A stretch of 64,000 nucleotides of DNA, taken from the IMG/VR virus record IMGVR_UViG_3300050821_018098. One strand, 5' to 3'. How positions within the stretch are numbered: position 1 is the first letter of the stretch; every line of letters begins with the position of its first letter. Shown one piece after another: positions 6,363 to 11,749 of this stretch. The translations under genes were made by a program, and so were the position numbers. The notes under the pieces were generated by a model. The model was not told the DNA's origin and did not search any database. It worked only from the letters and a program-made list of their open reading frames with translations. This DNA is from a virus. Its lineage: Duplodnaviria > Heunggongvirae > Uroviricota > Caudoviricetes.

Positions 6363-6398
6363 AAAAAACCTGTTCATTTATTTGAACAGGTTTTTTTT
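6363..6398. terminator. bidirectional intrinsic terminator (MCP / CYTH convergent)
   Basis: AAAAAACCTGTTCA-tttatt-TGAACAGGTTTTTTTT. Confidence 0.85.
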
Positions 6399-7001: not shown

Positions 7002-7083
7002 TAGCGGTAGAGGGACTCGAACCCTCCGTAGTAAACCTGGCTCCTTATGAGGAAGCTCCGATGCCATCTCCGGTCATACCGCT
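7002..7083 (-). tRNA. tRNA-Met/Ile2 (CAU), atypical 13-nt variable region
   Basis: Acceptor AGCGGTA/TACCGCT, anticodon arm GCTTC-CTCATAA-GGAGC, T arm GAGGG-TTCGAGT-CCCTC; D stem only CCG/CGG. Confidence 0.8.
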
Positions 7084-7095
7084 ATTTTTTAATTG

Positions 7096-7170
7096 TTTTC
7101 CCAGGAGGATTCGAACCTAAACCATTAAATGATCCAAAATCATTTGTGATGCCAATTACACTATGGGAAA
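7096..7170 (-). tRNA. tRNA-Gln (UUG)
   Basis: Acceptor TTTCCCA/TGGGAAA, anticodon arm AATGA-TTTTGGA-TCATT, T loop TTCGAAT; T stem pairs fully only with a TTT bulge (GG-ttt-AGG/CCTCC). Confidence 0.85.
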
Positions 7171-7182
7171 ATATATAAAAAC

Positions 7183-7220
7183 AAAAAAACCCGACCAACT
7201 ATAAAAGTTGACCGGGTTTT
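7183..7220 (-). terminator. attenuator terminator upstream of the tRNA-Gln/Met pair
   Basis: Minus-strand RNA ACCCGGUCAACU-uuuau-AGUUGGUCGGGU-UUUUUU; 12 bp including two G-U pairs that form only on the minus strand. Confidence 0.85.
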
Positions 7221-7242
7221 AATATTTTTGTTATTTCAAATA

Positions 7243-7314
7243 TTAAGCAAAACTTTCCCAGTCAACCATTGGTTGTTGCTGAGCCTGCATATTATTTGAA
7301 ATTAATTTTTTCAT
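7243..7314 (-). CDS. leader peptide MKKLISNNMQAQQQPMVDWESFA
   Basis: 23-codon ORF read by hand; Gln/Met block ATG CAG GCT CAG CAA CAA CCA ATG; lies directly before the terminator and tRNA-Gln/Met; TATATAA motif 13 nt upstream. Confidence 0.8.
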   Translation of the reverse strand: MKKLISNNMQAQQQPMVDWESFA

Positions 7315-7572
7315 CTTAGATTATATATCAGAAAATTTCTGTTTGTTTTAGCAAAATTAGTAATTTATTTCATTTTATCAAAATATTCTTTAAATAATAT
7401 TCACGCATTTTATCGAATCCATCAATTAAAGTATTCCAGGAATGAATAAGTTCAAAGTTTATTTTCTCATTTACTATAGAAGGAATATACTTAAAATCTA
7501 TATTAGACCAATTATCACCTAAGAAGTATTGAAAGCATTCTTCATCAAACTTATTTCTTACAAACTGATATC

Positions 7573-9933: not shown

Positions 9934-9987
9934 ACGTATCAATACAAAAGGAAGATATTTGTCTTCATATATAAGTTAAGAAAAACA

Positions 9988-10086
9988 ATGAACTTGAACA
10001 ATAACATATCTACAACCACTACGAATAGATGGCATCGTCGTACAAGAACCTCTCAAGGGTTGCTTAGTGGTCATGGTATGTTGTAA
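9988..10086 (+). CDS. leader peptide MNLNNNISTTTTNRWHRRTRTSQGLLSGHGML
   Basis: 32-codon ORF read by hand; Thr run plus AGA TGG CAT CGT CGT ACA AGA (10027-10047); followed by a terminator and five tRNAs; TATATAA at 9968. Confidence 0.82.
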   Translation: MNLNNNISTTTTNRWHRRTRTSQGLLSGHGML

Positions 10087-10113: not shown

Positions 10114-10159
10114 AAAATCCGCCTCGAAGCATAAAACCTTCGAGGCGGATTTTTGTTTA
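10114..10159 (+). terminator. attenuator terminator upstream of the His/Trp/Arg/Arg/Thr tRNA operon
   Basis: AAAATCCGCCTCGAAG-cataaaac-CTTCGAGGCGGATTTT then TGTTT; ends a few nt before tRNA-His. Confidence 0.88.
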
Positions 10160-10238: not shown

Positions 10239-10317
10239 ACAGCAGCTGGCATTGGCGAGCCGAGCATTCTCCAAAAGTGTGTCGAAAGACTTGTAGATCC
10301 GACTTCTACCTGCTGTG
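10239..10317 (+). tRNA. tRNA-Trp (CCA) with class II-like variable arm
   Basis: ACAGCAG/CTGCTGT acceptor, GGC/GCC D stem, GCATT-CTCCAAA-AGTGT, variable hairpin GTC-GAAA-GAC, T arm GTAGA-TCCGACT-TCTAC. Confidence 0.8.
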
Positions 10318-10573: not shown

Positions 10574-11749
10574 ATGAAAATAAATATCAACATATTAAAA
10601 GAAATTCCTAAGAACTTTGGTTCTGGATTATGTGTATATGGTAAACCTAGTGAAGAAGTTTCTTCATGGATAAACTATCACAATTTTGAAACCGAGTTAT
10701 CTGGAAGCTTCACTAATATAATAATACCAGAAGATTTAGATATTAATACAGCTTTTTACATTAACGAGCAGTATGAGTATATTGATGGGATTAGTCCAAA
10801 TCTCAATAAGTATACTCATTTAGGACATATATCTAACTTTGTATTAGCTAAAACTTTTCAAAAACTTGGTATAGGAAAACAATTTATCGCTAACCTCGGT
10901 GATACTTTGGAGGGTAATGTTAAAAAAGAAGATGCTTTAAAAGTTTATCAGGAAATATGTAACACTTTCGATTACAAAATTGATAAAATATTCTTTGCTT
11001 CTGAATTAGAATATACTGGTGAACTTTTAGAAAACGGACAAGGTGAATATGAAGGCACTAAAATATTTAACATAAATGATAAGAAATTGGTCGGAATTAA
11101 AAGTAATGGGGCTACATCATATTTTTATCAGGATGTAGCCCTGGCCTCTATACTAAACAGTAAAACTTTATACATGACAGGTTTGGAACAAGGTGAGCAT
11201 TTTAAATCTTTGAAAATATTATTTCCAAATGTTGAACATCTACCTCTTGGTTTAGTTATGGTAAAAGGCGAGAAAATGTCTTCTCGTTTAGGTAATGTGA
11301 TCTTATTTTCTGAGATCATAGATATGTTCAAAGAGAAATTTGGTGATAATGATAAGCTTGTATGGAATGTATTAGCAGGTTATATTTTAAAATCTATTCC
11401 TGGAACCAATAAAAACATTGATTTGGATCAATTGGATAATGTTAAGATGTCAGCCGGTTTATATTTGAGCTATACGTTGGCTAAATTAAAAAGTGCTGGA
11501 TTAGTTGTAAATGATATATCTGATTTCAATTCAGTTTTCTTAAAAATAAAAACATTGAAAGCAAAGAATAGTTTATCACCAAATATATTGTTTGAAGCTT
11601 TAGTGGAACAGGCTAAAAAGATAAGTGGTTTGTATGAGTTATATCAAATAAAAGGAAACGACGATAATCAAAAAATGTTCAACCCCTTGGCTGAGGACTT
11701 ATTATTTGGTATGAAACTATTAGGTCTTTATGATATAGACAAGGTGTAA
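10574..11749 (+). CDS. argS: compact arginyl-tRNA synthetase
   Basis: SPNLNKYTHLGH (HIGH), GLEQGEHF, KMSSRLGNVI (KMSKS), GLYLSYTLAKLKS anticodon-domain motif; directly follows two tRNA-Arg genes. Confidence 0.85.
   Translation: MKININILKEIPKNFGSGLCVYGKPSEEVSSWINYHNFETELSGSFTNIIIPEDLDINTAFYINEQYEYIDGISPNLNKYTHLGHISNFVLAKTFQKLGIGKQFIANLGDTLEGNVKKEDALKVYQEICNTFDYKIDKIFFASELEYTGELLENGQGEYEGTKIFNINDKKLVGIKSNGATSYFYQDVALASILNSKTLYMTGLEQGEHFKSLKILFPNVEHLPLGLVMVKGEKMSSRLGNVILFSEIIDMFKEKFGDNDKLVWNVLAGYILKSIPGTNKNIDLDQLDNVKMSAGLYLSYTLAKLKSAGLVVNDISDFNSVFLKIKTLKAKNSLSPNILFEALVEQAKKISGLYELYQIKGNDDNQKMFNPLAEDLLFGMKLLGLYDIDKV

Follow-up and report, generated by a model that had tools for sequence, protein, structure and literature searches.

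The 64,000-nucleotide (nt) stretch of viral DNA analyzed here (the window), part of IMG/VR virus record IMGVR_UViG_3300050821_018098, carries on its minus strand a short, glutamine-rich open reading frame (ORF) and an intrinsic terminator directly ahead of the genes for tRNA-Gln(UUG) and a second tRNA with a CAU anticodon. We consider it likely that this arrangement is a ribosome-mediated leader-peptide transcription attenuator of the trp/his type, gating tRNA-Gln(UUG), the CAU tRNA, and probably also the gene for a CYTH-domain protein that follows them. Direct support comes from the elements themselves and their calculated energies, from an excess of complementarity between the leader and the terminator, from conservation and covariation in one orthologue, and from a match between leader codons and downstream tRNAs throughout a family of such leaders.

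A Gln-rich leader ORF and a terminator precede tRNA-Gln

The leader ORF spans positions 7314 to 7243 on the minus strand (ATG at 7314, TAA at 7245 to 7243), and its 23 codons read MKKLISNN-MQAQQQ-PMVDWESFA. Codons 9 to 14 (ATG CAG GCT CAG CAA CAA, 7290 to 7273) make up the putative regulatory block M-Q-A-Q-Q-Q. The Gln codons lie at 7287 to 7285, 7281 to 7279, 7278 to 7276, and 7275 to 7273, giving four Gln in five positions ahead of tRNA-Gln(UUG). Measured against codon usage, Gln and Met together are enriched in the leader (binomial P = 6e-4), as is Gln alone (P = 6e-3). The 167-kb record has 233,043 stop-free windows in its six frames; only 11 of them (about eight places) contain four Gln in five codons, and one of these sits about 100 nt upstream of the record's only tRNA-Gln gene. 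A first-pass annotation, made from the letters of this DNA, had begun the leader at the ATG at 7290; the ORF and its Gln codons were borne out, and the start moves eight codons upstream, to the ATG at 7314. A start at 7290 was rejected; the N-terminal prefix that begins at 7314 is conserved across the family described below.

The terminator (7220 to 7183, minus strand) has a 15-bp stem with a GC-rich base and ends in a run of seven T residues. It is followed by tRNA-Gln (7170 to 7095, minus strand; called by ARAGORN and matching the Rfam tRNA model with 49.3 bits) and then by the CAU tRNA (7083 to 7002, minus strand), which is 82 nt long with a 13-nt variable region and scores 37.5 bits with the same model. 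The T run lies 13 nt from the start of tRNA-Gln. This spacer is too short to hold a promoter, and therefore any transcript that makes the tRNAs must cross the terminator.

Alternative helices in the leader RNA

Four segments of the minus-strand transcript can form three helices. Region 1 (CAACC, 7275 to 7271) pairs with the GGUUG of region 2, and this 1:2 hairpin is lengthened by an extended region 1 arm at 7283 to 7279 (CUCAG with CUGGG). Region 2 (GGTTGACTGGG, 7267 to 7257) serves both as the 3' arm of 1:2 and as the 5' strand of the 2:3 antiterminator. Region 3 (CCCGGTCAACT, 7216 to 7206) is the 5' arm of the terminator, which it forms together with region 4 (AGTTGGTCGGG, 7200 to 7190) and an A/U extension; the T run follows at 7189 to 7183. 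Regions 1 to 3 and the three pairings had been proposed in the first-pass annotation, and every coordinate that it gave proved correct on the minus strand. The calculated free energies are -4.2 kcal/mol for the 1:2 mini-hairpin (-9.7 kcal/mol with the CUCAG/CUGGG extension), -17.4 kcal/mol for the 11 pairs of the 2:3 duplex, and -13.4 kcal/mol for the 3:4 core duplex, or -17.6 kcal/mol for the full terminator. It had further been claimed that the G-U pairs of the terminator form only on the minus strand. The minus strand indeed folds more stably (-18.1 versus -15.6 kcal/mol), but the plus strand nonetheless folds, with an internal loop.

The minimum free energy structure, both in the window and in the orthologue L007 described below, is a large hairpin around most of the leader ORF (7302 to 7233, minus strand) that carries the 1:2 hairpin at its top. 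This enclosing hairpin has an energy of -20.4 kcal/mol, and the leader fold has a z score of -6.3. No Rfam leader family exceeded its gathering threshold, the best scores being 21 bits for Trp_leader (cut-off, 41) and 22.6 bits for L20_leader (cut-off, 58.7).

The complementarity between region 2 and the terminator 5' arm exceeds chance. Pairing of the 110 upstream nt with that arm gives a best duplex of -18.7 kcal/mol, a value matched by none of 2000 dinucleotide shuffles and by 2 of 5000 random genome windows, and by a second measure the same pairing was reached in 1 of 500 shuffles. The fraction of the arm that is paired is a weak test, with a shuffle background of 0.53 to 0.60. These controls bear on the reading that an ordinary operon-internal terminator here happens to follow a fortuitous ORF with fortuitous complementarity. 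The genome is AT-rich and full of short ORFs, and the case was picked out of 64 kb, but the shuffle and genome-window controls, the conservation in L007, and the recurrence in other genomes speak against chance, to which we give next to no weight.

Conservation in an orthologous unit

An orthologous unit was reached via the CYTH protein (59% identical) on a 6.7-kb ENA contig, L007; another run yielded an identical copy, L008. The leader, terminator, both tRNAs, and the CYTH gene are kept as a module in L007, while the upstream gene is unrelated to that in the window and the order of the tRNAs is swapped. Identity between the two units is 72 to 74% over the leader and terminator and 73 to 77% over the tRNAs, compared with 50% in the unrelated upstream DNA. 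Within the leader ORF, L007 shows synonymous changes (CAG/CAA and AGT/AGC), a TAG in place of the TAA stop, and an in-frame extra CAG that brings the Gln codons to five. The C terminus is conservative, VDWES(F/Y)A.

Two pairs differ in L007 on both sides and remain paired: U-A has become C-G where the big hairpin is closed at its base, and C-G has become U-A in the uppermost part of 1:2. Another five pairs are altered on one side yet still paired, and three weak pairs are broken. The terminator has three one-sided changes, with pairing kept in all of them, and pairing also holds at each of the nine 2:3 pairs for which an alignment with L007 was possible.

Predicted effect of ribosome position

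Folding with the whole terminator present did not separate ribosome positions, and we therefore modeled the transcript at the stage at which region 4 is not yet made, blocking out as the ribosome footprint the stretch that runs from 12 nt ahead of the first P-site base to 15 nt past it. With the A site at codons 2 to 12, the probability that the terminator 5' arm is sequestered is 0.98 to 0.99. It declines to 0.79 at Q13 and 0.55 at Q14, and from codon 16 through the stop it is 0.15 to 0.39. As the probability falls past the Gln run, the Gln codons are the last positions at which a stalled ribosome would still permit antitermination. With no ribosome on the leader, the model keeps region 2 locked in the big hairpin, which would thus sequester it. 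L007 behaves in the same way, its longer Gln run stopping at the same switch boundary, and in the window unit, in L007, and in the leader of locus L032 described below, the regulatory block ends where the switch falls. The trp/his logic put forward in the first-pass annotation is supported by this footprint-masked folding as well as by the 2:3 excess over shuffles and the conservation in L007.

Codon-matched leaders in other operons and phages

Beyond the window unit we found 14 leaders, in five other records, each with a codon block that matches its own downstream tRNAs. In a sister operon on the plus strand of the window itself, a 32-codon leader (9988 to 10086) with the block TTTTNRWHRRTRT (T-T-T-T-N-R-W-H-R-R-T-R-T) precedes a 16-bp terminator (10114 to 10153). 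tRNA-His starts 9 nt later, and it is followed by a Trp-like element, Arg(ACG), Arg(UCU), Thr(UGU), and a compact arginyl-tRNA synthetase (ArgRS). No other place in the 167-kb record reaches 10 such codons out of 13. We also considered whether the sister leader might be an Arg-rich RNA-binding peptide resembling lambda N, a candidate that was rejected and fits neither the Gln leader nor the other leaders.

Homologues of the ArgRS led to locus L032, in which a leader with the block M-I-I-R-M-R-R-I-R and a terminator stand ahead of Arg(UCU), Ile(GAU), Arg(ACG), the ArgRS, and Met. The 636-kb megaphage sequence LR756504.1 has six codon-matched leaders. In one, 16 consecutive I/A/V/E/G codons precede Glu, Ala, Ile, Val, and Gly tRNAs; in others, F-W-H-F-H-F precedes a Trp-like tRNA, His, and Phe, Q-Q-Y-K-Q-Y-Q-P-Q-Y precedes a Pro-like tRNA, two Tyr, and Gln, and M-I-I-R-M-R-I-I-R precedes Arg(UCU), Ile, and Met. 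The remaining two are an Asp-containing paralogue ahead of Asp and an N/T/R block ahead of Thr, Asn, and Thr. A scan of their terminators found four that end 11 to 16 nt before a tRNA and one about 12 nt before the Trp-like tRNA; it picked up none for the sixth leader. A second megaphage, LR745206.1 (635 kb), adds five more leaders, including P-Q-P-Q-D-Q-D-P ahead of two Asp, Pro, and three Gln tRNAs. The leaders of L032, LR756504.1, LR745206.1, and the window have in common an N-terminal prefix, MK(T)xxxN(I), and an AT-rich box upstream. The leaders in L032, LR756504.1, and LR745206.1 were found via protein homology rather than via the leader, which argues further against the chance reading.

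The correspondence between codons and tRNAs is statistically strong. A matrix of seven independent leaders by tRNA set peaks on its diagonal, and the true assignment alone, 1 of 5040 permutations, reaches 68 hits. At the codon level, three leaders gave binomial P values of 6e-4, 4e-5, and 9e-8 against the codon usage of the window phage. The leaders with at least three Gln codons are exactly those ahead of tRNA-Gln (5 of 5 versus 0 of 10; Fisher P = 3e-4), an association that persists when orthologues and paralogues are removed (P = 0.0045). A pair of homologous leaders differs in the same sense, with a CGT codon in L032, where tRNA-Arg(ACG) lies behind the terminator, and ATT in LR756504.1, where tRNA-Arg(ACG) lies upstream of the leader. 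The duplex between region 2 and the terminator arm was reached in no more than 1 of 1000 shuffles for six of nine leaders, and in 23 of 1000 for a seventh.

Two other readings dispense with attenuation by a translating ribosome. One is that the leader encodes a functional micropeptide or small RNA ahead of an ordinary leaky terminator, with unregulated read-through and a Gln run unrelated to the tRNA. The ORF and its conservative C terminus are kept in L007, the leader fold is stable, and there are weak subthreshold matches to Rfam small RNAs, all as that reading would have it. We nevertheless think it quite improbable, as it leaves unexplained both the complementarity of region 2 to the terminator arm and the way in which leader composition tracks the downstream tRNA set in 15 leaders, and the family peptides have just the short N-terminal prefix in common. 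The other is that the leader RNA senses tRNA directly by codon-anticodon pairing, free of the ribosome, in the manner of a T-box specifier. The leader codons are indeed complementary to the anticodon of the downstream tRNA. Against this, no T-box (RF00230) or other riboswitch family was detected between 6300 and 8000 at E values up to 1, the codons share one reading frame that is bounded by conserved start and stop codons and in which an indel has kept the frame, and runs of as many as 16 neighboring codons for five different tRNAs fit serial decoding rather than a single specifier. We regard direct sensing as very improbable.

A related design is seen in the cultured Caulobacter phage phiCbK (JX100813.1, 47000 to 52800; locus L059), where it was partly checked, from the annotation and sequence of the record. 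Three annotated rho-independent terminators each stand ahead of a tRNA block. The 45-amino-acid (aa) gp083, rich in Ser, Leu, Pro, and Lys, precedes two tRNA-Pro, two Lys, three Leu, and two Ser, and an ORF without annotation, with the block Q-F-V-R-Q-I-Q-V-V, resembles a codon-matched leader for Phe, Val, Ile, and Gln. On balance, we favor the view that these leaders form a modular family of sensors of decoding capacity in large phages, in which an exchangeable codon block lists the tRNAs behind the terminator and co-evolves with the content of the operon, so that the phage would top up the tRNAs for which its ribosomes wait.

Exact-pattern scans of IMG/VR for the terminator, both tRNAs, the leader, and the promoter returned nothing, chance coding matches, or LR756504.1 again, and two scans of JGI metagenomes gave nothing and one chance match. 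Among neighbors by capsid protein, the L007 lineage is 78% identical and the next at most 60%; one context was examined, and the unit was not present in it. The leader design was absent from the ArgRS contexts L028 to L031 and L033. More distant CYTH homologues (42 to 43% identical) do not have this leader; they adjoin other tRNAs and a structured RNA of another kind. At L009:2055-2240 and L012:80-265, in such relatives, the CYTH gene again follows tRNAs, and between them lies a conserved structured RNA about 190 nt in length; it begins with GTTTTCGTAGTGGTTAAC, ends in a tRNA-like T arm and acceptor, and was not called by any tool used.

A candidate promoter element

An AT-rich, promoter-like box, TGATATATAATCT (7318 to 7330, minus strand), ends 4 nt before the leader ATG and may act as the promoter of the unit, as we infer from its position and its recurrence. 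It aligns with CATATATACGTT in L007 and with CATATATAAGTT in the second operon of the window. A related motif, ATATATACGTT (at most one mismatch), precedes leaders as well as ordinary genes in the window phage and in LR756504.1 and is probably a phage promoter element distinct from the T4 late box. It occurs 11 to 36 nt upstream of the ATG of several ordinary genes and of the leaders, with copies at G000 84106, 120595, 135065, 158056(-), and 59138(-) and at 9967 to 9977 of the window.

Proposed mechanism and points against it

The following sequence of events, including regulated read-through, translation of the leader, stalling, and promoter activity, is what we infer from these features. Transcription would begin just upstream of the ATG at 7314, and the 23-codon leader would be translated while it emerges. 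When Gln is decoded quickly, the ribosome would proceed to the stop codon and cover region 2; when no ribosome has loaded, region 2 would stay locked in the hairpin from 7302 to 7233. In either case region 3 would pair with region 4, and the polymerase would halt at the T run, 13 nt short of tRNA-Gln. When decoding is slow at the Gln run (7287 to 7273), a stalled ribosome would open the 5' arm of the hairpin, cover region 1, and free region 2, which would capture region 3 ahead of the synthesis of region 4. No terminator would then form, the polymerase would enter the tRNA genes, and RNase P and other nucleases would trim the tRNA precursor. The net effect would be negative feedback, with the phage making its own tRNA-Gln when charged Gln-tRNA for CAA and CAG is scarce and switching it off when supply is adequate. 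The quantity that is sensed may be tRNA abundance, tRNA charging, or glutamine supply. If this mechanism is correct, the top-up would matter, for example, when the tRNAs of the host run low, are degraded, or are cut by defense nucleases.

Several observations weigh against this proposal. With the full terminator present, equilibrium folding favors the terminator at nearly every ribosome position, and therefore the decision would have to be kinetic, by kinetic trapping as in trp; the trp attenuator, with textbook energies, likewise favors the terminator at equilibrium. With the A site at the last Gln codon, the ribosome footprint already lies over the first five bases of region 2. The 2:3 duplex of L007 is significant under just one of two definitions of the arm (24 of 2000 versus 117 of 1000 shuffles), the sister operon has no significant simple 2:3 duplex, and covariation for this leader comes from two sequences, the window and L007. 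Half of the leader Gln codons (two of four) are CAG, though the genome favors CAA about 4:1 and the tRNA has a UUG anticodon, a caveat that the first-pass annotation had itself raised and that stands. That annotation had also taken both Gln and Met as regulatory codons. The Gln run is kept in L007, but the link to Met is weak: the ATG at 7269 to 7267 is ATA in L007 and so is not a conserved regulatory codon. Finally, there is no Shine-Dalgarno sequence ahead of the ATG at 7314, and a sigma-70 scan of the unit gave no promoter candidate, leaving the common AT-rich motif as the sole pointer to a promoter.

The leading rival accepts that the leader is translated and senses decoding speed and differs in the output, which would be Rho access, processing by RNase E or RNase P, or precursor stability, the T-run hairpin being mainly an element of processing or stability. 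It draws on some of the same points, namely, that the codon match, strong everywhere, is accompanied in the sister operon by no significant 2:3 antiterminator, and that equilibrium folding prefers the terminator wherever the ribosome stands. The hairpin is also close enough to the mature 5' end of the tRNA to be in reach of precursor processing. Yet it has all the features of an intrinsic terminator, region 2 is complementary to the terminator 5' arm in six or seven of nine leaders of differing sequence, and the codon block ends at the switch boundary in all three units in which this was seen. We consider such an alternative output unlikely and retain transcription attenuation as the preferred reading of the window unit.

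Genomic context and other features

The source record is 166.9 kb long, with about 29% G+C and a completeness estimate of 29%, and it carries a T4-type Gp23 capsid gene. The closest relatives of its capsid protein and ArgRS are in uncultured megaphages of 630 to 730 kb, and the source is an uncultured giant phage of a marine type. As a guess, a Bacteroidota host would agree with the names given to CYTH homologues and with the lack of Shine-Dalgarno sequences.

The minus-strand unit is flanked by divergent plus-strand genes. Its first upstream gene is a 427-aa ORF (8856 to 7573, minus strand) in which a nucleoside 2-deoxyribosyltransferase-like domain is fused to a weak Nudix domain. Five relatives in IMG/VR are 39 to 48% identical to this protein, and no tRNAs were found near its homologues. 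A 68-aa ORF (7576 to 7370, minus strand) lies between it and the 200-nt gap ahead of tRNA-Gln that contains the leader ORF, the long hairpin, and the terminator. Downstream, the CYTH-domain gene (6934 to 6422, minus strand) starts 67 nt past the last tRNA with no terminator between, and it is probably co-transcribed with tRNA-Gln and the CAU tRNA. The Pfam CYTH match (E = 8e-4) is under the curated cut-off; the protein has 143 homologues, many of which bear the CYTH name. A bidirectional terminator at 6396 to 6363 closes the unit.

The first-pass annotation had named the two tRNAs tRNA-Gln and tRNA-Met. The former is tRNA-Gln(UUG), and the latter is a candidate for either Met or Ile2. ARAGORN made no call for the CAU tRNA in the window, yet it called the L007 orthologue tRNA-Met (83 nt, with a 4-bp variable-arm stem). 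Both copies (7002 to 7083 of the window and L007:980-1062) measure 82 to 83 nt, carry A73, and have a long variable region. By ARAGORN lengths, LR756504.1 and LR745206.1 (loci L037, L042, L050, L052, and L053) contain many tRNAs of 80 to 92 nt for types that normally have a short variable arm (Lys, Asn, Thr, Gln, and Leu-like), and this group of phages seems to be characterized by class I anticodons on bodies with a long arm. At L042 (oriented copy 966 to 1041), also in LR756504.1, ARAGORN reported a tRNA with a four-base anticodon (tttc), which may be a frameshift-type tRNA or a miscall.

In the sister operon, the anticodon loop of the Trp-like element (10239 to 10317, plus strand), between tRNA-His and tRNA-Arg, reads CUCCAAA, and its variable hairpin is long; the element was called by neither ARAGORN nor Rfam (E < 0.01). 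A comparable element with a CCA loop follows the terminator in LR756504.1 (L040 oriented copy 2119 to 2196), and both leaders contain TGG. The ArgRS-like protein directly behind this second tRNA array (10574 to 11749, plus strand) is compact, at 391 aa, and has 441 homologues of about 390 aa (E < 1e-20) in contigs of megaphage size. In L032 and LR756504.1, the ArgRS lies within or beside the operon with the Arg/Ile/Met leader. L032 also contains a tRNA-like stretch of about 130 nt (L032:205-335), between tRNA-Thr and the leader, with a T arm, an acceptor end, and a long internal insertion, for which there was no ARAGORN or Rfam call.

Comparison with known systems

To our knowledge, the general view is that tRNA genes are controlled at the promoter, by growth rate and the stringent response, or not at all, and full-text searches of the published literature did not find leader-peptide attenuation of tRNA genes described. 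If the proposal is correct, the unit would represent the first case of tRNA genes under attenuation control. It would account for the dosing of tRNAs, one codon at a time and by direct feedback from the ribosome, in phages that carry dozens of them, and it would tie the carriage of tRNAs by phages to depletion of host tRNAs. It would offer a simple annotation rule for the tRNA operons of huge phages, help in inferring the identity of odd tRNAs from the leader, and provide a compact, ready-made, re-programmable sensor of decoding speed. The same design being visible in cultured phiCbK, the idea is directly testable.

The window unit resembles the E. coli leaders trpL, hisL, pheL, leuL, thrL, and ilvL in having a short leader, predicted here to be translated, with regulatory codons, exclusive 1:2, 2:3, and 3:4 helices, and an intrinsic terminator directly before the regulated genes; in both, a ribosome at the codons would free region 2 and one near the stop would mask it. 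With their blocks for several amino acids, the sister leaders are similar to the multivalent leaders of thr and ilvGMEDA. Unlike the E. coli amino acid leaders, the window unit is phage encoded and its targets are tRNA genes rather than biosynthetic enzymes, such that the feedback would act on decoding capacity itself. It also differs in that it has no Shine-Dalgarno sequence, its mRNA possibly being leaderless, and in its family N-terminal prefix joined to an exchangeable codon block.

Leader attenuation of a translation component is known from E. coli pheST, with its pheM leader, and the sister operon and L032 are like it in placing a synthetase, the compact ArgRS, behind an Arg-rich leader. 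pheST controls a synthetase only, whereas the first and main products of the window unit are tRNAs. T-box riboswitches share with it conditional termination in response to the state of a specific tRNA via a codon-like specifier. They differ in binding uncharged tRNA without a ribosome and in controlling synthetase and amino acid genes in Gram-positive bacteria, while the codons of the window unit lie inside a conserved ORF. phiCbK appears to have the same succession of codon-matched leader, terminator, and tRNA block, with leaders and a promoter motif unrelated in sequence to those of the window unit. Within this design the window unit is the simplest case, with essentially one amino acid and two tRNAs, and it has one of the clearest 2:3 pairings.

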